A stretch of DNA of 64,000 bases, taken from Fibrella musci (GTDB lineage: Bacteria > Bacteroidota > Bacteroidia > Cytophagales > Spirosomataceae). Below are positions 3,303 through 40,549 of the stretch, piece by piece. Below the pieces are notes generated by a model. That model did not search any database and was not told where the DNA came from. It was given only the letters and a program-made list of their open reading frames with translations. Numbering within the stretch: position 1 is the first letter of the stretch; every line of letters begins with the position of its first letter. The DNA lies in contig NZ_JBGGWD010000005.1 in the NCBI RefSeq assembly GCF_041321105.1, positions 8,544 through 72,543 on the forward strand, read 5' to 3'. Made by a program: the position numbers and the translations under genes.

Positions 3303-3809
3303 TTAGACGACAAACGTTCGTTGACCGATTGGCTTTAAGCCTGTCGTAGCCGAGGAGTATTCATTTTCAAACGCACGATCCCTCAACCAGCGTTCGGGAT
3401 CTTTGCGGTACTGCGCGTCGGGCTGATGAGCAAGGTAATCCGGCAGCACAACAGTGGCTTTGTGGCGGTCCTTCTGGCACAATTTGGTCCATTGCTGGAA
3501 CGCCTTCTTCTTATTGGCCGACCGTTTGTCGTATTGCTGCCAGAAGGCCTCAAACTCATCATTGTATCCGCCCTGTTGTTTCGAATCAGGCGTATTCGCC
3601 AGTTCGACAGAACCGGCAAGAGATGACACTCCAGTGTCTTTCCCTTTAGGAGATACGTTAGTATCTCTTTCCTTTTCCTTTTGTGTACTTTTCCAGTAGT
3701 ATTCCACTGGAAAACATTGGGATAACTTAGTTATAAGTCTTGACAGTGGGAATTCAGCCCCTGAGGCTAGTTCGATGAGGTTTATCTTACCGCTTGTGAG
3801 TCTTGTCAC
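3303..3809 (-). CDS. hypothetical protein (168 aa), first gene of the primase operon
   Basis: Co-directional with the primase gene and separated from it by 6 bp. Confidence 0.45.
   Translation of the reverse strand: MTRLTSGKINLIELASGAEFPLSRLITKLSQCFPVEYYWKSTQKEKERDTNVSPKGKDTGVSSLAGSVELANTPDSKQQGGYNDEFEAFWQQYDKRSANKKKAFQQWTKLCQKDRHKATVVLPDYLAHQPDAQYRKDPERWLRDRAFENEYSSATTGLKPIGQRTFVV
3689..3714. promoter_or_regulatory. Palindrome TTTTCCAGT-N8-ACTGGAAAA
   Basis: Perfect 9-bp inverted arms. Related to the TTTTCC..GGAAAA sites downstream. Confidence 0.45.
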
Positions 3810-3951: not shown

Positions 3952-4026
3952 TCGCATCCCGGTAAAGGTCATCGCTTGATTGCATCAGCAGTTCAACAGC
4001 TTAGTTTTCCTCTGCTTATCCGAAGG

Positions 4027-4055
4027 TTTTCCGATGGAAAACGCCCGGAATACCC
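4027..4055. repeat. Iteron-like unit 2: palindrome TTTTCCGATGGAAAA followed by GGAATACC
   Basis: Identical 15-bp palindrome plus a GGAATACC tail. Lies in the noncoding leader upstream of the primase operon. Confidence 0.55.
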
Positions 4056-4333: not shown

Positions 4334-5125
4334 TTGACGATTGAACTTCAACCTCCACACCTTATGGTACCAAGTCGCTTACTGTTGCTACTTGTGAATC
4401 TCGCCCTCATCAGCCTGGCCTGTGATAGAAAGAAGCAAGAGCCGTCTACGCCTGCCCCCAGCCAGCATCTCTGTACGATGATGGGCCAAATCGAGCCCGA
4501 TCAGACACTTACTGGTGAATCCACACTGCTATGGCCCAAAAAGCGGATCGAGGTCTACTTTATGGATGATGATGGGCAGGTTCGAGATCGGGTCTTGGCT
4601 ATCGCCAATGCCTGGAAGCCATTCTCCGGCGTTCAATTTGTTCGTTCGTTCGATCAGAGCACATCCGATATTCGGGTATCCTTTCGAACTGACGGATGGT
4701 GGTCCTACATCGGAACGATGTCAACTGAAGTAGGCAAAGACTCAGCGACCCTATCCCTAGATAGCCTGTACTTATACCCCCCTGATAAATTTAGAAGCAT
4801 CGTCTTACACGAGTTTGGTCACAGCCTAGGATTACTGCACGAACATCAGCATCCGTTTCTTGAGATCGACTGGGATCTGCCTGCTCTGTATAAATACTAC
4901 GAGGATGAATATGGTGTCGATACGACTTGGGTGAAGGAAAATGTAATCCACAAATACGAGAGTTTGACCGGCATTTATTGCGAACCGGATCTAAAGTCCA
5001 TCATGCTTTATAAGATCCCCCCTGGTCTAACAAAAAACGCCATTGTCGCACCGGAGCCTCTGGATTTATCCGTATTAGACAAAAAATACATCCGCATCAT
5101 CTATGCAGGTGGCACCTGTAATTAA
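4334..5125 (+). CDS. Astacin-like (M12A-type) zinc metalloprotease, lipoprotein
   Basis: HEFGHSLGLLHEH matches HExxHxxGxxHE, with a SIMLY Met-turn. N-terminal signal with LISLAC lipobox. Confidence 0.7.
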   Translation: MTIELQPPHLMVPSRLLLLLVNLALISLACDRKKQEPSTPAPSQHLCTMMGQIEPDQTLTGESTLLWPKKRIEVYFMDDDGQVRDRVLAIANAWKPFSGVQFVRSFDQSTSDIRVSFRTDGWWSYIGTMSTEVGKDSATLSLDSLYLYPPDKFRSIVLHEFGHSLGLLHEHQHPFLEIDWDLPALYKYYEDEYGVDTTWVKENVIHKYESLTGIYCEPDLKSIMLYKIPPGLTKNAIVAPEPLDLSVLDKKYIRIIYAGGTCN

Positions 5126-29656: not shown

Positions 29657-30706
29657 TCAGTTGTCGGTAGCTGGCGAGACCACTGGCTCAGGATTAGGCC
29701 CATAGGCGGCTAACCCGGCTTGCAGCCGTTTCTGGATGCTATGGCGCAGCCGGGCGGGCTCGAGCACCTGCATGCCATCGCCAAAGCCCAGGATTTCTTT
29801 TTCCAGTTCGAAGTTGTGCTGCACTAGCAGTTCGATCAGGATACCGGCTTCGGTTCGCTCCAGCACCCGTTGCGAATGGTGCAGGGGTTTGGTTTCGACG
29901 TAGGGCGCGTGGCGGGCGATCACGAAGAGCTTCACGCGAACGGGCCGCAGATTTTCGCTCACCGTGACGCCGATGACGTGCCGGTAATAATGGTCGGGGT
30001 CGATGTGCTCGTTGGGTACGTAGTCGGCGGAAGTATCTACGCTGAGCGACAGCATCCGGTCGAGGGCCAGGTTGTTGAGCATCCCTTTGCCGTTGCGCAG
30101 ACCAACGGCAAACCAGCGGTTTTTAAACTCCTTGAGCCACCAGACGTGAAAGGTAAACGTCTGCGGAGCGCGGGCCGAAAACGACTGATACTCGATTCGG
30201 AGCGCCCGTTTCTGAATTACCGCCTGGTAGAGTTCGTCGAGCAGGTGAAGGCCCCGCAGGTTATCGTTCTTCTCGAAGTCGATCACCCGCGCCGACTTCT
30301 GAGCAGTGGCATAGACGTGATCTTCCAGCTTCTGCACCACCTCGTTGAGTGCCGAAAAATGCGAGAAGCCCCGAAATTGTTTCAGCACCTCTACGGCTTC
30401 ATTCATCCGCGACAGATCGCCATCCGACAGTGGAATGTTAGTGATGCTGTAGGTGGGATCGTCGTAGGTGTAGTACTTTTTGTCGATCACCACGATGGGC
30501 GCAAAATAACCCAGTTTGTCGCTGCGCATCAGTTGCAGATCGGCCTGCACAGTGCGGCGGCTGATGCCTTTGTCGATGCCTTCATACTCGTACAGGGCTT
30601 CGGAGACACGCTCGATCAGGTCGTCGAGCGTCCATTTGCGTTGCCGGTTGCGCAGGCAGACGTCCAGCGTTTTATAGCGAATAAGGGCGTTTCGGTTGGT
30701 AGGCAT
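29657..30706 (-). CDS. HTH plus WYL domain transcriptional regulator
   Basis: N-terminal wHTH-like region (RYKTLDVCLRNRQRKWTLDDL) with architecture similar to WYL-family regulators. Confidence 0.55.
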   Translation of the reverse strand: MPTNRNALIRYKTLDVCLRNRQRKWTLDDLIERVSEALYEYEGIDKGISRRTVQADLQLMRSDKLGYFAPIVVIDKKYYTYDDPTYSITNIPLSDGDLSRMNEAVEVLKQFRGFSHFSALNEVVQKLEDHVYATAQKSARVIDFEKNDNLRGLHLLDELYQAVIQKRALRIEYQSFSARAPQTFTFHVWWLKEFKNRWFAVGLRNGKGMLNNLALDRMLSLSVDTSADYVPNEHIDPDHYYRHVIGVTVSENLRPVRVKLFVIARHAPYVETKPLHHSQRVLERTEAGILIELLVQHNFELEKEILGFGDGMQVLEPARLRHSIQKRLQAGLAAYGPNPEPVVSPATDN

Positions 30707-30844
30707 AATGGCACGCGGATGACATGGATTTTAAGGATGATCGCGGATTTTATGCTTATGATAGCCAATCCTTTTCATCCAGACGCGCACTCTTAAGTCG
30801 TAAGCTGCGGTCCCATCCATCATTCAATTTTTGTAAAAATTTTT

Positions 30845-30871
30845 CATCTGCGCAAAAAGACTGCGCAGATG
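30845..30871. promoter_or_regulatory. 10-bp inverted repeat CATCTGCGCA-N7-TGCGCAGATG upstream of the WYL regulator
   Basis: Perfect palindrome ~140 bp upstream of the start codon. Candidate operator. Confidence 0.4.
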
Positions 30872-31034
30872 GCCTAAACCTTTGTCGTAGTGAAAGCGCC
30901 GATGGCCAGCCCGGACGAGGGTTTCTGCAGGGCCCCGTAGTATCGCAGCCGCTGGCTGATCCCGATATGCTGCTGGTAGCAGGTGGCTGCACTATTAGAT
31001 CTGTGGGTTGGGGGTTCAAGTCCTCCCTCTGTTT

Positions 31035-31089
31035 CGGCAGGGTAGCTCAATGGTAGAGCAACAGCAAAATGCAGGTTCGAATCCTGCTA
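31035..31089 (+). other. tRNA-like remnant: acceptor/D-arm and T-arm present, anticodon arm absent. A further T-arm-like fragment lies at 31010-31034.
   Basis: GGCAGGGTAGCTCAATGGTAGAGCA then directly GCAGGTTCGAATCCTGC. The 3' strand TATCAAC does not pair with the 5' end. Confidence 0.3.
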
Positions 31090-31442
31090 TCAACCTGTAA
31101 AGTTGATCCATGGATGGGAAGTCGACCGCTTCTAAAAATGGTCACTCGATAATTGGATCGGTCAGCCACGATCCGGTGGCGGTTGGGTTCGCCCGACCAC
31201 CACAGCTTAGTCAGCGCCAGCGGGCCGGTAACGCGGCTGGGGCGGGCTTGGCGGCGGTAACCGGGTTGTTGGCTGGGTACGTTGGTTCGTCAGACAGCGT
31301 TGCGTCTGATGGGGCCGGCCTCCTCGCCAACACAGGTTCCCAATGCCTCGCACCAAAGCAGTCGCCGCGTCGGCTTCCGCGTGGGCTAGGCGGGTCGCTG
31401 GCTGATCGGTTTTTTAATGAATTACCTTAAACACCATTTGCA

Positions 31443-32558
31443 ATGAAAACGGTACGCATCCTGGCTCATCAGATTGGGCTTGTATTTAAACATGGCGGCT
31501 ACAAAAAAAAGCTGTCGGCGGGCAACCACTGGGTTTGGTCCAACGAAACCGTCTATGTCTACAATCAGGGAGAGCCGTTCCAGAACCCACCCTGCGAGCT
31601 GGCCCTGTTGCTGGCTCACCCGGAGGTCGCCGCGGCCCTTGATGTAATAGACGTCAACGACAACGAAATCGCGCTGCAATACGAGCGGATCGCCGGGTCG
31701 TCGACGGGTCTGTTTCAGACCATTCTGCGCAAAGGCCGCTGGGCTTACTGGAAGGGCGTGAAACAATACACCTACATCCGGGCCGATCTGAGCCAGTTGA
31801 CCATTCCGGCCGAGGTTGACCTGGCCTCGCTGATGCCGCAGCCGCTGTCGGCCTACGTGCGGACGTATTCCGTGGAAGCCCACGAGCAGGGCGTGCTGTT
31901 TGTCGACTGGCAATTTGATCGGGTGTTGACGCCAGGTACGTATCACTGGTGGAAAAACACCACGCCCATCCACGTCCTGAAAGTCGACATGCGGCAGCAG
32001 CAACTGGAGGTGTCGGGTCAGGAGATGCTGACCAAAGACAAAGCCTCGCTGCGGTTGAGCTTCTTCGTGCCCTATCAGGTACGTGACGTGCTGAAGGCGT
32101 TGGTCGACAACAAAGACTACGACAAGCAGTTATATGTTGCCGTGCAGCTGGCCCTGCGTGAATACATCGGTGGCCTGACGCTCGACGAGTTGCTGGACCG
32201 CAAAAACGACCTGGCGCCGTTTGTGCTGGCCGCCACCGCCGCTAAAGCTGCCGCGCTGGGTATCGAGTTGCGGGGCGGTGGGGTGCGCGACATCATTTTG
32301 CCGGGCGACATGCGCGACATCATGAATCAGGTGCTGATGGCCGAGAAAAAAGCGCAGGCCAACAGCATCATGCGCCGCGAAGAAACCGCTTCGACCCGTA
32401 GCTTGCTGAACACCGCCAAGCTGATGGAAGACAACGAGATGCTGTGGAAGCTGAAAGAGATGGAGTACGTAGAAAAAATCGCCGACAAGATCAATTCTAT
32501 TTCCGTGTCCAACGGCGGCCCGATCGTCGATCAGTTGAAGCAATTGTTTGTGAAGTAA
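31443..32558 (+). CDS. SPFH/band-7 (stomatin/prohibitin-like) domain protein
   Basis: Central/C-terminal ...GGVRDIILPGDMRDIMNQVLMAEKKAQANSIMRREE... characteristic of SPFH proteins. Confidence 0.65.
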   Translation: MKTVRILAHQIGLVFKHGGYKKKLSAGNHWVWSNETVYVYNQGEPFQNPPCELALLLAHPEVAAALDVIDVNDNEIALQYERIAGSSTGLFQTILRKGRWAYWKGVKQYTYIRADLSQLTIPAEVDLASLMPQPLSAYVRTYSVEAHEQGVLFVDWQFDRVLTPGTYHWWKNTTPIHVLKVDMRQQQLEVSGQEMLTKDKASLRLSFFVPYQVRDVLKALVDNKDYDKQLYVAVQLALREYIGGLTLDELLDRKNDLAPFVLAATAAKAAALGIELRGGGVRDIILPGDMRDIMNQVLMAEKKAQANSIMRREETASTRSLLNTAKLMEDNEMLWKLKEMEYVEKIADKINSISVSNGGPIVDQLKQLFVK

Positions 32559-32670
32559 GTTACCCCCCGCCCTAAAGGGAGCCCGCTGGCGCACGAATAC
32601 GCCTACGGCGGAGCTACTAAAGCGCCAGCAGGCACCCTTTAGGTGGTCCGGCATTCCGGCGGGGGGTAAC
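32559..32670 (+). promoter_or_regulatory. Large multi-stem structured element between the SPFH stop and the rtcB start
   Basis: Outer 13-bp arms GTTACCCCCCGCC/GGCGGGGGGTAAC. Nested stems CCTAAAGGG/CCCTTTAGG and GCTGGCGC/GCGCCAGC, plus small hairpins CGCC-TAC-GGCG and CCGG-CATT-CCGG. Followed by an A-rich tract rather than a U-tract. Confidence 0.5.
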
Positions 32671-32694
32671 CGCACCAAAAAACAAAACCATCCC

Positions 32695-34230
32695 ATGGAA
32701 ACCTCCTTTTCTCTTGACGAATTACTGGCGCTGGGGCCGATTCCCGAGGCGCTGCAACCGGCGTTTCTGCGCGTAGCCAACGGGCTGACGCAACGGGCCG
32801 AATACCCTAAAGCGTACGTACTGGGTTTGCTGGCGCAGTTGCTCCAGAATCCGAAGAAGTTTGCCTATTCGAAAAACAAAGTCACGAACCTGGCCCGGTC
32901 GGTGTATGAACTGAGTCAGCAGGGTGTTAGCATTCCGCTGAGCGAAACCGGGGCAACGTACCTGCCCGCCGAGCCCGCGCCATACGTACTAAACACCGAT
33001 CAGAAACAGACCGAAACCGCCTTCGATCTGCGTGAGGGACCACTCCCCTACGCGGTCTTCGGGCGCGATTTCATCGAAGAAGGCGCGCTGAAACAGATGC
33101 ACACGGCTGCGAGCCTGCCGGTGTCGGTGGCGGGCGCGCTCATGCCCGACGCCCATCAGGGTTACGGACTGCCCATCGGCGGCGTATTGGCGACCGAGGC
33201 GAATACCGTGATTCCGTTTGCGGTGGGAGTCGACATTGCCTGCCGGATGTGCCTGTCGATCTTCGACCTGACGCCCGATTTTCTGAAGCGAGAACCGCAT
33301 TTGCTGAAAAAATCGCTGGTGGAGCAAACCAAGTTTGGCATCGGGGGCGAAACCCGCGAAAAGCTCGATGAAAGCGTGATGGATTTGCCTGAATGGCGCG
33401 CCACGAAGGTGATCCGGGACCTGAAAGACAAAGCCTACCGGCAGTTGGGTAGCTCGGGAACGGGCAACCATTTTGTGGAGTGGGGCATTGTGGAGGTGTA
33501 TGCCGACGAAGGCGCGGAGACCAGACTGAACCTGACACCGGGCGAGTACCTGGCCCTGCTGTCGCACTCGGGGTCGCGGGGTTTTGGCGGCAATGTGGCT
33601 AATTACTACTCGAAACTGGCCATGCAGAAGACGAAGCTGCCCAAAGAAGCGGCGCACCTGGCCTGGCTCGACCTGAACACCGAGGAAGGGCAGGAATACT
33701 GGATTGCGATGAACCTGGCGGGTGAATACGCTTCGGCCAATCACCACGAAATCCACCGGAAACTGGCCAAAGCCCTGCGTCAGAAACCACTGGTGATGGT
33801 CGAGAACCACCACAATTTTGCCTGGAAAGAGCAACTGGCCGATGGCCGTGAGGTGATCGTCCATCGCAAGGGTGCAACGCCCGCTGGTCCCGATGTGTTG
33901 GGGATCATTCCCGGCTCAATGACCCAACCGGGCTTTGTCGTGCGCGGACGCGGCAACGCCGAATCGATCAATTCGGCGTCGCACGGGGCCGGACGGCTGA
34001 TGTCACGTACCCAGGCGTTCAACAGCATCACCCGGTCGCAGTGGAACAAAGCGCTCGCCGACGCCGACGTGCAGTTGGTGGGTGGCGACCTCGACGAAGC
34101 GCCGATGGTGTACAAAGACATCGATACTGTCATTAACGCTCAACGTGATCTGGTATCGGTACTGGCGAAGTTTACGCCCAAAATCGTTCGGATGGCCGAC
34201 GCCAACCGGAAAGAAGGGCGCGAAGATTGA
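32695..34230 (+). CDS. rtcB: RNA-splicing ligase RtcB, with a ~100-aa N-terminal extension
   Basis: NHHNFAWKE...HRKGATPA and PGSMTQPGFVVRG motifs typical of RtcB. Confidence 0.85.
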   Translation: METSFSLDELLALGPIPEALQPAFLRVANGLTQRAEYPKAYVLGLLAQLLQNPKKFAYSKNKVTNLARSVYELSQQGVSIPLSETGATYLPAEPAPYVLNTDQKQTETAFDLREGPLPYAVFGRDFIEEGALKQMHTAASLPVSVAGALMPDAHQGYGLPIGGVLATEANTVIPFAVGVDIACRMCLSIFDLTPDFLKREPHLLKKSLVEQTKFGIGGETREKLDESVMDLPEWRATKVIRDLKDKAYRQLGSSGTGNHFVEWGIVEVYADEGAETRLNLTPGEYLALLSHSGSRGFGGNVANYYSKLAMQKTKLPKEAAHLAWLDLNTEEGQEYWIAMNLAGEYASANHHEIHRKLAKALRQKPLVMVENHHNFAWKEQLADGREVIVHRKGATPAGPDVLGIIPGSMTQPGFVVRGRGNAESINSASHGAGRLMSRTQAFNSITRSQWNKALADADVQLVGGDLDEAPMVYKDIDTVINAQRDLVSVLAKFTPKIVRMADANRKEGRED

Positions 34231-34306
34231 GGTCAGGAACCCGCTACTTGTCAATCAGCCCCCATTGATCGTCAGTGGGGGCTGATTTTTTAACGGCCAG
34301 ATCAGC

Positions 34307-35455
34307 CTACGAAATGGTTTTTAGTAAAACACCCAATAAAGCAGCACCGGCAATTAAATAAGGCTCGGGTAACTTGTTGAACCGCCACAAAAGCACGCCC
34401 GCCAGCAGGGCCAGGCATAGTGCAGGCCAGTCGGTCAGCTGCCGTCGACCCAGTACAACAACTGCCCCGGCAATGGCACCGACCGCACCAATGGTGATGC
34501 CATCGACGAAGGCCCGGATGCCGGGTCGTTGACCGTAGCGTTTGAAGTAAGGGGCGGGCAGAATCGTGAGCAGGTAGCAGGGCAAAAACGTGGCTAGGGC
34601 CGCTACGCAGGCACCAGCCCAGCCCGCCACCAGATACCCAATGAAAGCTACCGTGATGACCACCGGCCCCGGCGTGATCATGGCAACGGCCACCGCATCC
34701 AGAAACTGCTGCTCGTTGAGCCAGCCGTATTCCTTCACGACGCCCCCGTACAGAAACGGAACAATGGCCAGACCGCTACCAAAAACAAACGCGCCCGCTT
34801 TCCCGAAAAACAGGGCCAGTTTCCAGTAAATCGACCCCGGTGTCGCCAGCCCCCACAACTCTATAGTGGGCGACAACGTACCCAGACGGCTCAACTGTCG
34901 AAAATCGGGGGGCGATTTAACCAGCCAGTAGAGCACGCCCGCGCCCACGATAAGTCCGATCAGTTCCGTTTCCAGAACTGCCGTCGTTACCGCCGAAACC
35001 CCGAAAATCACCCAGCCTAGCCAATCGGCCGGGCGAACGGTTTTGAGGGTAAGCTTATACGTACCCATCGCAATAATGGCGATAACAGCCGCCCCGATGC
35101 CGTAAAAAATGGCCTGAATCCAGGCTAATCCGCCAAAGCGCACGTAGGCCCAGCCAATCGCCAGCACCATCAGAAAAGAGGGAATCACGAAGGCCACGCC
35201 AACGGCCGTTGCGCCAAGTATGCCGTAGTGTACGTAGCCCAGATAAATGGCCAGTTGAGCCGCCAGCGGGCCGGGTGCCAACTGCGCCAGCGCTACACCT
35301 TCACGGTAGTCGGCTTCGCTGATCCACTGGCGGGCTACCACCAGATCGCGGTGCATGTAGCCGATCAGGGCGGGTGGTCCACCAAAACCAACGGTTCCTA
35401 GTTTCAGGAAGTAAACCACCAGGTCACGGAGCGAATAGGTAGCGGTTGTATGCAT
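34307..35455 (-). CDS. chrA: Chromate transporter ChrA
   Basis: GGPPALIGYMHRDLV..., LAQLAPGPLA, and a duplicated CHR domain architecture. Confidence 0.8.
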   Translation of the reverse strand: MHTTATYSLRDLVVYFLKLGTVGFGGPPALIGYMHRDLVVARQWISEADYREGVALAQLAPGPLAAQLAIYLGYVHYGILGATAVGVAFVIPSFLMVLAIGWAYVRFGGLAWIQAIFYGIGAAVIAIIAMGTYKLTLKTVRPADWLGWVIFGVSAVTTAVLETELIGLIVGAGVLYWLVKSPPDFRQLSRLGTLSPTIELWGLATPGSIYWKLALFFGKAGAFVFGSGLAIVPFLYGGVVKEYGWLNEQQFLDAVAVAMITPGPVVITVAFIGYLVAGWAGACVAALATFLPCYLLTILPAPYFKRYGQRPGIRAFVDGITIGAVGAIAGAVVVLGRRQLTDWPALCLALLAGVLLWRFNKLPEPYLIAGAALLGVLLKTIS

Positions 35456-35458
35456 GGC

Positions 35459-36049
35459 TCAGAAAGAAACGCCGAACTGAAAACCGAGCGTGGCGCTGGT
35501 GGGGCGGTCGTTGCCAAAGCGAACGGGTAGTGGTATGGCCAGAAAATAATTCATCGGGCCGGGCCGACGGAAGGTTTTGTTCAATACCGGCGTAACCCCG
35601 TAGCGCCCACCGGTTTCAAACGCCAACCGATTAGCGAGCGTAAACCCTTTACCCAGGCCTACCAGCACACCCGGATGAAACAGCACATTGTTGACCCGGC
35701 TAATCCCCGCTTCGGATCGGATAAACGGCACGATTTCCAGCGAATAACCGATGTTGGCCGTTTTCCAGATGTTGACTCCGACGGGAAAACCAACCTGGTA
35801 AAAGCTTTTAAAATTGACCACCGGCGCATCCTGACTGAACGTCACGATCGGGTGAAGAATACCCTGATACAGCACCGTGCGGGGATAGTCATGGACGGGA
35901 GGTACCTGCTGGGCGTGCATCGCCAACGGGATCAGGGTTAACAACAGGCTGATAGTTAGCAGCCCGACAGGCCGAAAAAACAAAGCCTGACAATAAGTTG
36001 AGTAGCCGTAAAGCATGCGCGTAAACATAGCGTTGACTGGGCTCGGCAT
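35459..36049 (-). CDS. Hypothetical membrane/outer-membrane protein (196 aa), probably co-transcribed with chrA
   Basis: Hydrophobic signal-like segment and a beta-rich alternating pattern. 3 bp from chrA. Confidence 0.4.
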   Translation of the reverse strand: MPSPVNAMFTRMLYGYSTYCQALFFRPVGLLTISLLLTLIPLAMHAQQVPPVHDYPRTVLYQGILHPIVTFSQDAPVVNFKSFYQVGFPVGVNIWKTANIGYSLEIVPFIRSEAGISRVNNVLFHPGVLVGLGKGFTLANRLAFETGGRYGVTPVLNKTFRRPGPMNYFLAIPLPVRFGNDRPTSATLGFQFGVSF

Positions 36050-36115
36050 ACCAGAACCGAACCCGGTTACAAGGCTATGAACGCTTCGTTGGCTGGCATA
36101 GCACAGAATTGCCCT

Positions 36116-36239
36116 TTGGCCTATTCTTTACCTTTTTGGACCTGTTTTCGATAAGCCGACGGACTTATGCCGACCATTTTTTTGAACACGCGCGTGAAAT
36201 GACTCTGATCGGAAAAGCCCGTCAGGTACGCAATGTCGG
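36116..36239 (-). pseudogene. Orphan 3' fragment of an AraC-family gene (last 41 codons plus stop): direct repeat copy A
   Basis: About 95% identical to 37394-37517. Encodes ...DIAYLTGFSDQSHFTRVFKKMVGISPSAYRKQVQKGKE*. Confidence 0.7.
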
Positions 36240-36242
36240 AAG

Positions 36243-37349
36243 TTAGGTCGCTGTTTTGTCTTTGAGTACGTACACCGTTGCCCTTCCTTCACCCATCCGT
36301 TCCAGCATGCCCTGCTGCACCATGTATTGCAGGTCCTTTTTGAGCGTGTTCACCGACAAATCAGGCAGCAGCGCAGACAGATCGCTAACCTTGACAGGTC
36401 GATTCGCCTGGAACGACGCAACGACTCGCTGCTGTCGGGCATTGAGATAACCACCTTTATCTTTATACAGCGCATACTTATTGTTTAACCGATCAGTTAA
36501 CGTTTTCAAACAGTCGAGAAAGAAGATGATCCAATCGCCAATGAGCTCACGATCTGTTCCCCGATGTTGCTGACCCGCCATCAATGCCCGGTAATAATCG
36601 GCTTTCCGCTGCTCGATAATATTTTCAAACGACACATACTGGGCGAAGTCGTAGCCCATTTTCAACAACAGCAAGGTTGTCAATAATCGCGACAACCGGC
36701 CGTTACCGTCCTGAAACGGGTGAATAGAGAGAAACTCATAGACAAAAAGCCCGATAACCAGAAGCGGGTGAATTTGCTTGTTGCTTAAGGCCGCAGCCAC
36801 CCACCGGAGCATGTCAAACATCTCCGCTTCGATCAGGTGCGGCGCCGTCGTGTTAAATATGACCCGTTGTGTACCGTCCGGGTAGTTAGCCACAACCTGG
36901 TTCGAAAGGGCTTTGTAACTGCCCCGGTGCCGTTGGTCTTTATCGCTATAGCGAAGCAGGACACCGTGCAGCTGCTTTACGTAAGACTCGGTTAATTCGA
37001 TTGCTTTGGCATGGTCCAGAATCAGATCCAAGGCTTCATAATAGCCAAATACCTCTTGTTCATCGCGGGTTTTAAACTCGGTGACCTTTACACTCCGTAC
37101 CAGTTTTTCAACCTCCTCATTGGTTAAGATAGCCCCTTCAATGCGGGTGGATGACCCAATACTTTCGATAGTAGCGACTCGCCTTAACTCGCGCAGATAA
37201 CGGTTATTTTTTTGCTCGATAGCTTCCCATTTCCCCCGAAACGCGTCAATCAGGCCAATACGACGTATTATTTCCTGTGTTGCCGCAAAATCGAACTGGA
37301 GCTTGTGCTCAAATATCATATCCGTATTGTATCCGTATTGTATCCGCAA
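36243..37349 (-). CDS. fic: Fic/DOC family protein (AMPylator-type) with a C-terminal winged-helix
   Basis: HPFQDGNGRLSRLL Fic motif. The ORF-track start is a TTG; an ATG (MIFEHKL...) lies 10 codons later at 37317-37319. Confidence 0.8.
   Translation of the reverse strand: MRIQYGYNTDMIFEHKLQFDFAATQEIIRRIGLIDAFRGKWEAIEQKNNRYLRELRRVATIESIGSSTRIEGAILTNEEVEKLVRSVKVTEFKTRDEQEVFGYYEALDLILDHAKAIELTESYVKQLHGVLLRYSDKDQRHRGSYKALSNQVVANYPDGTQRVIFNTTAPHLIEAEMFDMLRWVAAALSNKQIHPLLVIGLFVYEFLSIHPFQDGNGRLSRLLTTLLLLKMGYDFAQYVSFENIIEQRKADYYRALMAGQQHRGTDRELIGDWIIFFLDCLKTLTDRLNNKYALYKDKGGYLNARQQRVVASFQANRPVKVSDLSALLPDLSVNTLKKDLQYMVQQGMLERMGEGRATVYVLKDKTAT
37321..37346. repeat. Tandem 11-bp repeat TCCGTATTGTA x2.4 at the Fic 5' end
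   Basis: tccgtattgtatccgtattgtatccg, immediately upstream of (or within the first codons of) fic. Confidence 0.6.
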
Positions 37350-37393
37350 ATGTATGATATACCTTGCTAGAAGATAAGCCTGTTGATTACCCG

Positions 37394-37517
37394 TTGGCCT
37401 ATTCTTTACCTTTTTGAACCTGTTTTCGATAAGCCGACGGGCTTATGCCGACCACTTTTTTGAACACCCGCGTGAAATGACTCTGATCGAAAAAACCCGT
37501 CAGGTACGCAATGTCGA
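37394..37517. repeat. Direct repeat copy B, the intact 3' end of the AraC gene
   Basis: 124 bp with 6 mismatches versus 36116-36239. The two copies bracket the fic gene. Confidence 0.7.
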
Positions 37518-38268
37518 GGAGCGAATGATCGGGCTCGCTGAGCAGTTGGATGGCTTTGTCGATGCGCAGTTTCCGGATGTATTCGCCAAAGGTCAGGTTG
37601 TCGAAGTGGGTGGCAAATTCCCGCGACAGGTAGGTCGGGTTTAGTTGCACCGCTTCGGAAAGGGCTTTAAGGCTGATGCCCGCCGGACCGCCGATCCGGT
37701 TAGTGTCGATATGGTCCTGAATCAGGGTTTCGAGTTCGCGAATCCAGCCGGGCGTTCGTTTCCGGGCTTTCTTCTGCGACGCCAGGTACGTTGCCATCAC
37801 CTGAATCAGGCGATTTTCGGTGGGGTTCTGCGTGTGCTTCTCGTGTTGCAGGTACGTTGCCCAGCTGTAGAGCGCATCGTAGAGGACCATGCCCTGCGCC
37901 AGCAATTCCTCGTCATTTTGCAGGTTATAGGCCAGCCCGGCCGAGATGGCCCACAGCCCGGCGGCCTGCTCGGCCAGGGCGTGATTATCGGTGTCGGCTC
38001 CGCGCACAATGGGTGCTATCGTGTGCAGAGCCGGATCACGCATGTCGTATTTTTTCAGGAAACAATCGAAGGTACAGTCGGTGCCGTAATGCGAAAACTC
38101 AACGCCAGGTACGTCGAAGGGCGTTGCGCCCAGGGCCTCAGCTTGGGTCAGCACATCGTCGGCAGGTACAAACACGATCTGGGCGTCGGGGTCGATAAAG
38201 CGGCGTATGAGCCAGGGGCAGGCGATGCGGTCAATCTTCGGGCGTTCGCGGGTGATCCAGATCATCAC
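37399..38268 (-). CDS. AraC family transcriptional regulator
   Basis: C-terminal HTH_18 region ...LDIAYLTGFFDQSHFTRVFKKVVGISPSAYRK. The start overlaps the permease stop by 38 bp, so the true start is uncertain. Confidence 0.7.
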   Translation of the reverse strand: MMIWITRERPKIDRIACPWLIRRFIDPDAQIVFVPADDVLTQAEALGATPFDVPGVEFSHYGTDCTFDCFLKKYDMRDPALHTIAPIVRGADTDNHALAEQAAGLWAISAGLAYNLQNDEELLAQGMVLYDALYSWATYLQHEKHTQNPTENRLIQVMATYLASQKKARKRTPGWIRELETLIQDHIDTNRIGGPAGISLKALSEAVQLNPTYLSREFATHFDNLTFGEYIRKLRIDKAIQLLSEPDHSLLDIAYLTGFFDQSHFTRVFKKVVGISPSAYRKQVQKGKE

Positions 38269-39709
38269 TTACGGAGGAAAGATGCAGTTTACTGCGTTTT
38301 TTGCCGTACGCAAAATAGATCGCCAGCCCAATGGCCAGCCAGATGACGAGCCGCAACCAGGTGTCGCCGGGTAGGGAGACCATCATCACGAGGCAGGTCA
38401 GAATACCCAGAATCGGCACCACGGGTACCCACGGGGTACGAAAAGCGCGGGGAGCGTCGGGCTGTTTTTTGCGCAGAATCAGAATGCCGATGCAGACCAT
38501 CACGAAGGCTAGCAACGTGCCGATGCTCGTCATTTCGCCCACTACGCGAATGGGTACAAAACCGGCAAACAGGCCAATGAATACGCACAGCAGCACGTTG
38601 GCTTTCCAAGGCGTACGGAAACGGGGGTGCACCTCCGAAAACGCCTTAGGCAACAGTCCATCGCGGCTCATCGAGAAAAACACCCGCGACTGCCCCAGCA
38701 GATCGACCAGGATGACAGACGTATAGCCGATCAGAATGGCGCCGATGATGAGTTGTCCCAGCCAGCGGTAGGGCGTTTTTTCGATGGCAATGGCCACCGG
38801 TGCCGCGCTGTTTTTAAACTCGGTATAGTTGGCCATACCGGTCATGACGTAGCCGAACAGCACGAACAGAATGGTGCAGACTACCAGCGAGCCAATAATG
38901 CCAATAGGCATGTCGCGCTGCGGATTTTTGGCTTCCTGTGCCATCGTGGCCACAATGTCGAAGCCGATAAAGACGAAGAACACGACGCCCGCGCCCCGCA
39001 AAACCCCGCTCCAGCCGTATTCGCCGAACGTACCCGTGTTGGTCGGAATGTAGGGCTGATAATTGGCCGGGTCGATATACTGCCAGCCGAGGGCGATGAA
39101 TACGAGTACGACCAGCACTTTCAGCGTGACCACAATGGCGTTGAAGATAGCCGAACCCGACGTGCCACGAATGATGATACTGGTGATGAGTACTACGATC
39201 AACACCGCAGGTACGTTCATAAAACCCGTTACGACCGACCCGTCGGCACCAGTGGCGGTTTCAAACGGCGACAGCATAATTTGAGGCGGAATGTGCAGGC
39301 CGTAGTTCCCCAGAAATCGGTTGAGGTATTGCGACCAGCTGATGGCCACCGTAGCCGCCCCGACGGAGTATTCGAGCACCAGGTCCCAGCCGATGATCCA
39401 GGCGAAGAGTTCGCCCAGCGTGGCATACGCATACGTGTAGGCACTCCCTGAAATGGGTACCATTGCGGCAAACTCAGCGTAGCATAGGGCACTGAACGCA
39501 CAACCCACAGCGGCCACCACGAAGGAAAGCGTTACAGCTGGCCCGGCATGGTTGGCGGCGGCGATACCCGTGAGGGAAAATAGGCCCGCGCCAATGATGA
39601 CGCCAATGCCAATGGCTACTAAGTTGAACGCGCCCAGCGATCGTTTAAGGGTCGATGAGTCACTAGCCGCGGCTTCCTGCCGCAGTCGTTCAAGCGATTT
39701 AATGCGCAT
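38231..39709 (-). CDS. APC-superfamily amino acid permease
   Basis: Twelve or more hydrophobic helices and APC-type motifs such as FSYAEFAAMVPISGSAYTYAY. Confidence 0.8.
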   Translation of the reverse strand: MRIKSLERLRQEAAASDSSTLKRSLGAFNLVAIGIGVIIGAGLFSLTGIAAANHAGPAVTLSFVVAAVGCAFSALCYAEFAAMVPISGSAYTYAYATLGELFAWIIGWDLVLEYSVGAATVAISWSQYLNRFLGNYGLHIPPQIMLSPFETATGADGSVVTGFMNVPAVLIVVLITSIIIRGTSGSAIFNAIVVTLKVLVVLVFIALGWQYIDPANYQPYIPTNTGTFGEYGWSGVLRGAGVVFFVFIGFDIVATMAQEAKNPQRDMPIGIIGSLVVCTILFVLFGYVMTGMANYTEFKNSAAPVAIAIEKTPYRWLGQLIIGAILIGYTSVILVDLLGQSRVFFSMSRDGLLPKAFSEVHPRFRTPWKANVLLCVFIGLFAGFVPIRVVGEMTSIGTLLAFVMVCIGILILRKKQPDAPRAFRTPWVPVVPILGILTCLVMMVSLPGDTWLRLVIWLAIGLAIYFAYGKKRSKLHLSSVSDDLDHPRTPED

Positions 39710-39730: not shown

Positions 39731-40549
39731 TTAACGGGTCAGCAAACCTGCGTCGAGCACGAATTGGGAACCGGTGATGTAGCGTGCCCCGTCGGAGACC
39801 AGGTATAGCACCATCGCCGACACGTCTTCTGGTTCAACCCAGGGAACCGGCAATAAATTTCCCGCCGACCGCTCGGCAATTTCCTGCGTGGTGGTGCCTT
39901 CCAGCGCCGCCAGTCCGTCGTTCATGGGCGTATTGACGCCCGTGGGGTGGATGGAATTGACGCGTATGTTGTAGGGTGCCAGCTCGATAGCCCATGATTT
40001 GGTGAGGCCAACGAGCCCCCATTTCGAGGCGGCGTAATGGCTCAGGCGATTCATACCCCGCAGACCGGCGATGCTCGAATTGTTGAGAATAACCCCCGAT
40101 TTCTGTTCCATCATCACCGGAATAACGCGCCGCGCCACCAGCCAGGCCCCCTTCAGGTTGATGTCGAGCATGGCATCCCAGGCGTCTTCGGTGAGTTCGT
40201 GCGCCAGTCCGTAGGCACAGATACCCGCGTTGTTGAAGAGAATATCGATCCGCCCGAATTCAGCCATCGCCTGCTCCACCGCGCGGGTCACGTCGGCGTC
40301 GTTCCGCACATCGCCCGTCACGGGCAAACAACCCGCCCCTAAGGCTTCCACATCCACTTTCAACTGCGTCAGTTCGTCGGCTGAGCCGAAGGTGTAGGCT
40401 GGGTACGTCAGGTTTTGGGCGACGTCGAAGGCGACGATATTGATGCCTTCGTTGGCTAACGCCAGCGCTACGGCCCGGCCCTGTCCGTGGGCGGCACCTG
40501 TGATGAAGGCGACTTTAGGGGTGGTCCGGTTTTCAGACGAGTCAGGCAT
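39731..40549 (-). CDS. SDR family NAD(P)-dependent oxidoreductase
   Basis: TGAAHGQGRA Rossmann motif, NNAG, and YAASKWG (YxxxK). Confidence 0.85.
   Translation of the reverse strand: MPDSSENRTTPKVAFITGAAHGQGRAVALALANEGINIVAFDVAQNLTYPAYTFGSADELTQLKVDVEALGAGCLPVTGDVRNDADVTRAVEQAMAEFGRIDILFNNAGICAYGLAHELTEDAWDAMLDINLKGAWLVARRVIPVMMEQKSGVILNNSSIAGLRGMNRLSHYAASKWGLVGLTKSWAIELAPYNIRVNSIHPTGVNTPMNDGLAALEGTTTQEIAERSAGNLLPVPWVEPEDVSAMVLYLVSDGARYITGSQFVLDAGLLTR

Follow-up and report, generated by a model that had tools for sequence, protein, structure and literature searches.

A fic gene inserted with a 131-bp target duplication at the 3'-end of a chrB-araC regulator gene in Fibrella musci

Introduction

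The stretch of DNA analysed here, referred to as the window, comprises 64,000 nt of the genome of Fibrella musci (Bacteroidota, Cytophagales; NCBI RefSeq assembly GCF_041321105.1, contig NZ_JBGGWD010000005.1, positions 8,544 to 72,543 of the forward strand), and coordinates refer to it unless another contig is named. The window carries a fic gene, encoding a protein with a Fic domain, that stands between two direct repeats of the 3'-end of an AraC-type regulator gene. The locus raises the questions of how the fic gene came to lie between two copies of a host gene end, and of what holds its product in check. Comparison with three other Fibrella genomes gave the answer to the first part of the problem: the structure is an insertion accompanied by duplication of the target. 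The route by which the DNA was joined, and the control of the gene that it brought, are weighed below.

Results

A 131-bp direct repeat on either side of fic

A first-pass annotation of the sequence had described the fic gene as bracketed by 124-bp direct repeats of about 95% identity. The repeats are real and slightly longer. Alignment of the two copies in the window gave 131 nt with 8 mismatches (123/131 identical, 93.9%) at a spacing of 1278, while the 123-nt core recognised at first is 95.1% identical, and the longest stretch in which the copies are identical is 23 nt. Identity was not found to be low on exact alignment, an outcome that would have spoken against the repeat. Across the 64-kb window, a 20-mer taken from the repeat has exactly two occurrences, against 0.00 expected from shuffled sequences. 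The features of the repeat and of the DNA that it encloses are as follows.

37399..38265, minus strand: regulator gene (the target gene), 288 aa, ChrB_C domain fused to an AraC-type helix-turn-helix (HTH); intact thanks to the duplication
37386..37516, minus strand: repeat copy B, the functional 3'-end of the regulator gene, continuous with the gene upstream
36239..37385, minus strand: inserted DNA, 1147 bp, with fic as its sole gene; missing from the three Fibrella empty-site loci
36243..37319, minus strand: fic gene, 358 aa, assigned to class II from the Pfam Fic match, the motifs and the AlphaFold model
36108..36238, minus strand: repeat copy A, an orphan duplicate, joined to the native intergenic region and the outer membrane protein (OMP)-like gene downstream

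Copy B consists of 1 nt of a boundary codon, 38 codons, the TAG stop codon (37399-37401) and 13 nt of 3' flank. It had been taken for the intact end of an araC gene; it is a true gene end, but the gene is a fusion of a ChrB C-terminal domain (Pfam, E 1.6e-51) with an AraC-type HTH, and not a plain araC gene. Copy A was correctly read as an orphan starting after the fic stop codon: it begins 4 nt from the TAA stop of fic (36243-36245), has no gene in front of it, and still holds the regulator frame open up to the same stop. An assembly artefact was also considered, and was dismissed on account of the 8 positions that distinguish the copies and of the separate flank into which each of them runs.

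Empty sites in three Fibrella genomes

Relatives were compared using one genome per species. F. forsythiae (locus L001), F. aestuarina BUZ 2 (L174) and Fibrella sp. USSR17 (L175) have in common the order of a short-chain dehydrogenase/reductase (SDR) gene, a permease gene, the regulator gene and the OMP-like gene, and at this site each contains one 131-bp copy and no fic. Copies A and B align to the same single-copy interval (6750-6880 in L174, 6735-6865 in L001 and the equivalent interval in L175), and the edges of the alignments are sharp and complementary, copy B running into the upstream regulator and copy A into the native downstream intergenic region. Because three Fibrella genomes have the same neighbourhood with a single copy and without fic, the structure is an insertion with target duplication and not an old paralogous structure; the arrangement found in the window is not conserved in relatives, as an ancient one would be.

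The same comparison bears out the earlier proposal that a toxin-like gene was captured at the 3'-end of an araC-type gene, since besides the three empty sites Fic was found in 0/33 related regulator loci. The uninterrupted arrangement expected in relatives was also recovered, as regulator and OMP-like gene in the three Fibrella and, in the more distant Bacteroidota, as a complete cluster of regulator, OMP-like gene and chrA (Niastella, Chitinophaga and related genomes).

The insert is foreign in composition, with a G+C content of 48.2% vs 58.4% in its flanks. Copies A and B are identical at 123/131 positions, and either of them matches the three Fibrella orthologues at only 105-113/131; because A and B are closer to each other than to any orthologue, these identities place the origin of the duplicate inside the F. 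musci lineage. No integrase or transposase domain was detected in the insert or within about 15 kb on each side, as judged by Pfam scans covering 28 neighbouring genes (about 20.5 to 50.9 kb). A breakpoint in divergence at the repeat boundary was also looked for between the window and F. forsythiae. None was clear, identity falling gradually through the variable linker and the HTH region.

Fic protein

The fic gene starts at the ATG at 37319, which is shared by all homologues, and not at the TTG at 37349. Its product matches the Pfam Fic domain (7e-15) and contains the catalytic motif HxFx(D/E)GNGRxxR, as already recognised in the first-pass annotation, in the form HPFQDGNGRLSR at residues 200-211. 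An inhibitory motif (S/T)xxxE(G/N) is also present, as STRIEG at residues 57-62, N-terminal to the Fic core and at the end of a helix spanning residues 40-60. Across 40 homologues the catalytic core H200-R208 and the segment from S57 to G62 are invariant. The cargo of the insert is accordingly classified, on motifs and on the predicted structure, as a class II Fic protein with a built-in inhibitory helix.

The PADLOC model of SoFic was matched over nearly its whole profile (E 2.1e-43). Because the NCBIfam SoFic equivalog scored 53 bits against a cut-off of 550 despite the PADLOC match, the protein is best regarded as a relative, and not an orthologue, of SoFic. In the AlphaFold model (mean predicted local distance difference test score, pLDDT, 85.9) the C-terminal region, about residues 294-352, forms a winged helix of three helices (294-306, 311-317 and 323-335) and a beta-hairpin (339-352), and the same region gave weak profile matches to HTH_DeoR, DsrD, AbiEi and ArsR. 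Foldseek returned full-length matches to Dde_2494, Coxiella Fic2 (CbFic2), CccR and SoFic, with 7xux and 3eqx among the structures, and the best match by sequence in the PDB was a Bordetella Fic protein (8uqu, 2e-48). At 100% identity, the window protein also corresponds to the Fic entry of Fibrella sp. WM1, another name of F. musci.

It had been left to be checked whether the protein has a partner antitoxin or an inhibitory helix. The internal helix bearing STRIEG was found, and a gene for a partner antitoxin is not evident: apart from fic the insert offers no space for a gene, its upstream 66 nt corresponding to promoter and leader, and the genes downstream of fic differ in every homologous locus. 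Because the insert has no room beyond fic, a separate antitoxin would be neither needed nor present. A type II toxin-antitoxin module, formed by a class I Fic protein and a VbhA-like antitoxin, was considered and fails, there being no separate small antitoxin gene beside fic.

Leader of the fic gene

The leader of fic contains the following element.

37320..37357, minus strand: conserved promoter-proximal block, made of a TACATTTG box followed by tandem 11-mers up to the ATG; candidate operator

The box TACATTTG lies at 37347-37354, upstream of the tandem 11-mers, and fits TAnnTTTG, which we take to be the consensus of the Bacteroidetes -7 box. The 11-mers, GGATACAATAC repeated twice at 37324-37345, abut the ATG, and a degenerate third unit contains it. 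They lie in the leader because fic starts at 37319, in agreement with the position first assigned to an 11-bp tandem repeat; the view that they are a by-product of the insertion did not hold, because they are conserved in front of Fic homologues.

Indeed, the homology of the window with seven other Fic loci at the DNA level begins 35-38 nt upstream of the ATG and stops just before the stop codon. Upstream of the ATG, 8/8 close loci have TAyATTTr together with two 11-mers of the form (G/A)GATACAATAC, and a degenerate third unit holds the start codon. Among these 8 loci, mean pairwise identity is 81% from -38 to -1, drops to 27% beyond that block on its upstream side and is 67% over the first 30 nt of the coding sequence. 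Metagenomic homologues of 54-60% identity have two 11-mer arrays that bracket the promoter, and in homologues of 41-45% identity the two-array architecture is kept with different 11-mers. Taken together with the leader alignments, this makes the tandem 11-mers a conserved cis element of this Fic family and not an integration scar. By analogy with CccR, discussed below, they are probably the operator for the winged helix of Fic itself, by which the gene would be autorepressed. As far as the searched literature shows, such an operator-like leader has not been described before.

Further arrays were noted at other loci. In L155 (1-160 and 1222-1260), L094, L165, L163 and L164, arrays of the GATACAATAC type occur about 60-80 nt upstream of the ATG and abutting it, and L155 is flanked by a direct repeat TGGTTTGTAACCAAA (15 nt exact, about 35 nt imperfect). 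Viral contig L200 contains a 39-nt block of 11-nt-periodic units at 2887-2925 and again at 4000-4038 (95% identical), located 31 nt upstream of the Fic ATG and directly after the Fic stop; this block on both sides of the gene has the look of an operator array. In contig L180, tandem arrays of CGTATCAAAT were seen, as well as a flank similarity of 338 nt at 69% identity.

When metagenomes were scanned for the 21-nt leader motif, 7/80 matches lay beside a fic gene, the others being unrelated occurrences. Among the latter, the 21-nt motif GATACAATACGGATACAATAC with conserved flanks is found in termite-gut metagenomes at the 3'-end of an open reading frame (ORF) ending in ...DSNISDTIRIQYG* (L089, L098, L102, L104, L109, L113, L119, L122, L124 and L127), and no fic gene was detected at these loci. 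In L090, L093, L099, L114 and others, GATACAATACGGATACAATAC occurs in AT-rich non-coding DNA and is followed by GATACG repeats.

Fic homologues at other loci and search for a donor

The closest named homologue of the window Fic (82% identity) is encoded in F. forsythiae on contig JAFMYW010000033.1 (L081), 6381 bp long, together with Rep3 and ParA. This contig is probably a small iteron plasmid, as suggested by its sequence; no terminal overlap was found that would make it circular. Its iterons, five to seven in number and 22 bp long, lie at 4548-4706, and repeats with a period of 8 bp occur at 2377-2478 and at 3389-3458. Fic homologues of 43-47% identity were found on 63 plasmids, and others of 40-47% identity on about 45 predicted viral contigs, a distribution that marks the Fic family as mobile.

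Between copy B and the conserved leader of fic there remains a short segment.

37358..37385, minus strand: junction DNA, 28 nt, matching nothing

This segment has no homology to any other Fic locus or native intergenic region. A fic gene preceded by CAACAGGCTTATCTTCTAGCAAGGTATA would be the mark by which a donor could be recognised.

A preference of the gene for AraC-type neighbours was also considered. A same-strand AraC-type HTH gene lies directly upstream of fic in 2/16 loci with flanks screened, namely the window and L087, in which fic follows at 63 nt a hybrid sensor gene ending in an AraC HTH and no duplication is seen; in L083 an AraC gene is divergently oriented relative to fic. Because AraC-type genes are common in these genomes, the adjacency is suggestive at most. 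No orphan AraC fragment occurs in the close and metagenomic loci screened for one.

Interrupted chromate cluster and neighbouring genes

The genes around the insertion are all transcribed from the minus strand, in the order SDR, amino-acid permease, regulator, fic, OMP-like and chrA. Those not listed above are as follows.

39731-40549, minus strand: SDR gene
38231-39709, minus strand: amino-acid permease gene
35459..36049, minus strand: OMP-like gene, 196 aa, of no curated family; conserved downstream partner of the regulator
34307..35455, minus strand: chrA chromate efflux transporter gene, the last of the interrupted cluster

The insertion splits a conserved chromate cluster of regulator, OMP-like gene and chrA. 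The OMP-like gene has kept its 71-nt native upstream region behind copy A, preceded now by 118 nt of former coding sequence. No terminator was found downstream of fic in a terminator consensus scan, and the OMP-like gene and chrA may now receive read-through from the fic promoter. Scans for sigma-70 and terminator consensus sequences gave nothing beyond the expectation from shuffled sequences, and an Rfam scan of 35400-38400 gave no match above threshold.

Regulators with the ChrB_C-AraC architecture form a family of large size, 4586 of the proteins scored falling below 1e-60, and the start of the window regulator overlaps the 3'-end of the permease gene by about 35 nt. The 196-aa OMP-like protein matched no Pfam or NCBIfam family. 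In many Bacteroidota a protein of 55-91% identity to it is encoded directly downstream of a ChrB_C-AraC regulator (20/33 loci), and from this conserved place it is therefore likely to be an uncharacterised component of the chromate system.

The chrA gene is present in the window, at 34307-35455 in the interval 34231-35471. The loci of F. aestuarina, F. forsythiae and Fibrella sp. USSR17 that are syntenic with it lack chrA, and in them the OMP-like gene is followed, after 57-68 nt, by a convergent RtcB gene; the order regulator, OMP-like gene, chrA is the usual one in Chitinophagaceae. Because chrA is absent from the Fibrella synteny while the complete cluster is common in Chitinophagaceae, the gene would have been either repeatedly lost in Fibrella or regained in the F. 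musci lineage. Further on, the region 29657-34230 encodes a WYL/WCX regulator, two small ORFs, a Band_7/SPFH protein and an RtcB RNA ligase, and is syntenic in other Fibrella. Last, a 19-nt inverted match (16/19) connects the 5' region of the OMP-like gene (35935-35953) with the junction of copy B and the insert (37374-37392), and is probably due to chance because nine such pairs occur in 4.5 kb.

Discussion

Origin of the insertion

The explanation preferred here, to which a probability of about 0.55 is given, is the insertion of a cassette with a long target duplication, made without a dedicated recombinase and bringing in a self-inhibited and probably autorepressed Fic protein. A single-gene cassette, composed of its own promoter-operator block and a class II SoFic-like fic gene for a predicted AMP-transferase, would have been acquired horizontally and would have entered the chromosome of the F. 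musci lineage at the 3'-end of the chrB-araC regulator gene, duplicating 131 bp of the target. Host repair or illegitimate recombination may have joined the two ends of the cassette at positions separated by 131 bp, with fill-in synthesis making the duplicate. With the stop codon lying inside the duplicated segment, the ORF of the regulator is restored on one side, and the native 5' region of the OMP-like gene and chrA is kept on the other. In the resulting locus the N-terminal inhibitory helix would hold the Fic enzyme in check in cis, and the winged helix, on binding the tandem 11-mers over the transcription and translation start, would probably repress fic. What is shown here is the insertion with its duplication, the unoccupied site in three relatives, the foreign base composition of the insert, the conserved leader and the domain organisation of the protein; the manner of joining, the autorepression and a role in defence are inferred.

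Several observations weigh against this explanation. The mechanism of long target duplication has never been demonstrated experimentally. No donor was found, the homology to other Fic loci ending at 37357 and 36270, inside the insert. No comparable long duplication of a host gene is present at the 12 other close and metagenomic loci (seven close, L081-L088, and five metagenomic) or at the 39 viral-contig loci checked for one; because no other examined Fic locus shows it, the duplication would be a one-off event and not a habit of the cassette. The differences between A and B, at 8/131 positions, mean that the duplication is not fresh. The 38 shared codons differ by 4 synonymous and 2 non-synonymous changes (synonymous divergence dS 0.18, non-synonymous divergence dN 0.023, dN/dS about 0.13), and a neutrally decaying orphan should show more non-synonymous changes; the likelihood ratio in favour of both copies having been mostly functional alleles is about 3.7, obtained by hand arithmetic on six substitutions, and is weak.

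For comparison, the species-level dS with respect to F. aestuarina is 0.54-0.94. Polarising the 8 differences with the three outgroups gave an ambiguous result, copy B carrying 2-3 derived changes, copy A carrying 1 and 4 being homoplasious, and at three sites copy B matches F. aestuarina and copy A the other Fibrella. Two options are live for the 6% difference: an old duplication in situ, or the arrival of a circle carrying fic and the repeat from a diverged relative.

The second option corresponds to a Campbell-type homologous integration, in which a circle with fic and one 131-bp repeat, either excised from a related strain with a repeat-fic-repeat structure or consisting of a plasmid that had picked up the fragment, recombined by RecA with the resident 3'-end. 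This route is a serious possibility, although clearly a less probable one than direct insertion. On this view A and B would have begun as distinct alleles, as would suit their functional-gene pattern of substitution, the derived states present on both of them and the three sites that are split between F. aestuarina and the other Fibrella. It would also agree with the plasmid-borne state of the close homologue in the sister species, and excision through flanking repeats followed by re-invasion has already been proposed (PMC2853133). On the other hand, an original long-target-duplication event would still be required elsewhere, no donor or circular form is known, and the statistical argument, based on six substitutions, is weak. 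Homology would moreover be limited to 131 bp. The longest identical run in it, 23 nt, is near the lower limit for RecA-dependent exchange, and would also stabilise the present structure against loop-out.

A more far-reaching form of this idea, rather doubtful at present, is that the repeat-fic-repeat structure is itself a mobile element without recombinase, which forms a circle through its 131-bp repeats and re-enters orthologous regulator 3'-ends by host homologous recombination. If this were true, the 6% difference would record a transfer between diverged alleles and not decay in place, and the locus would be the first natural trace of the excise-and-re-invade life cycle so far only proposed for long-target-duplication genes, with a defence or toxin cargo in place of restriction-modification genes.

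Site-specific integration was given little weight. The cassette would then be an integrative element or its remnant, with an att site that mimics the regulator 3'-end, much as islands enter at the 3'-ends of tRNA or protein genes, and the repeats would be attL and attR. Direct repeats of a gene 3'-end that restore the target are the classical signature of integrative elements, and non-identical copies would fit a mimic carried by the element. In contrast with such elements, the window has a 1.1 kb insert with a single gene, which ends 4 nt past the fic stop codon and has no integrase or recombinase in its 1147 bp or within about 15 kb; the whole 131-bp interval is homologous in place of a short core, and its sharp ends match the single-copy target exactly. 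Nor do other Fic loci show recurrent att-like flanks or a preference for AraC genes (2/16). Least probable of all is an old tandem or paralogous duplication of the regulator, the second copy of which was mostly replaced or deleted while fic arrived independently. AraC-family genes are numerous and often paralogous, and the copies are not identical, but the three Fibrella genomes are single-copy and show no remnant of another copy, A and B both end exactly where a single 131-bp target interval does, each of the two is more closely related to the other than to any orthologue, and several precise extra steps would be needed.

Comparison with known systems

Insertion with long target duplication was reportedly described by Nobusato et al. 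in 2000 (Gene 259:99), and later treated by Furuta, Abe and Kobayashi (2010, PMC2853133). The features by which it is recognised are a duplication of more than 30 bp, which exceeds those usual for transposons or att sites, an insert of less than 20 kb that lacks linked mobility genes, and the alignment of both repeats with a single copy at an empty site; in many cases the repeats extend across a stop or start codon, and the target gene is thereby spared (PMC2853133). Published repeats measure between 46 and about 420 bp and show identities such as 384/412. Apart from restriction-modification genes, the published cargos are an mcrA homologue and an orphan methylase, most of the cases being from Proteobacteria and naturally competent species (PMC2853133). 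The locus described here has a duplication of 131 bp, an insert of 1147 bp devoid of mobility genes, and repeats that align to one empty-site copy, and it resembles the published cases in its small insert, its stop-spanning repeats and its potentially selfish toxic cargo. In its original scope the category comprised restriction-modification genes, whereas here a Cytophagales bacterium has one fic gene as the sole cargo; because the category has since come to include 'other DNAs' (PMC3457768), the difference concerns the cargo, not the pattern. The two copies, 94% alike, are also less similar than most of the published pairs compared (PMC2853133).

As for the cargo, class II Fic proteins of the SoFic type have been reported as single-protein anti-phage systems (PMC12249575). 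The window Fic has in common with SoFic the N-terminal inhibitory helix motif, the catalytic motif, a C-terminal domain and the overall fold, while it is only about 19-20% identical to Shewanella oneidensis SoFic in a structural alignment, and no small downstream AS1-like antitoxin gene is evident beside it. By this analogy, it is likely to act as a toxin or as an abortive-infection defence gene.

The only precedent for a class II Fic protein that silences itself through a winged helix is CccR of Yersinia pseudotuberculosis, which has a C-terminal HTH and binds and represses its own promoter (PMC9755527; PDB 7XUX). The window Fic aligns full-length with CccR, both by sequence (E 1e-11, residues 50-345) and by structure, and a winged helix-turn-helix is likewise predicted at its C-terminus. 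Unlike the window Fic, which has nothing of the kind in its neighbourhood, CccR is an effector that the type VI secretion system (T6SS) secretes, and is encoded among T6SS effectors; and the operator proposed for the window, made of 11-mers that include the start codon, is deduced from conservation alone.

Significance

The locus is a clean but fairly ordinary example of a known and poorly understood kind of transposase-free gene movement, unusually clean in that it has one gene, exact junctions and three empty sites. Long target duplication, a form of gene gain that needs neither transposase nor integrase, has few recorded cargos and hosts, and the locus extends them by a gene of the Fic/SoFic type and by the phylum Bacteroidota. 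The 11-mers running into the start codon offer, in addition, a concrete predicted operator by which class II Fic enzymes with a winged helix may be silenced.

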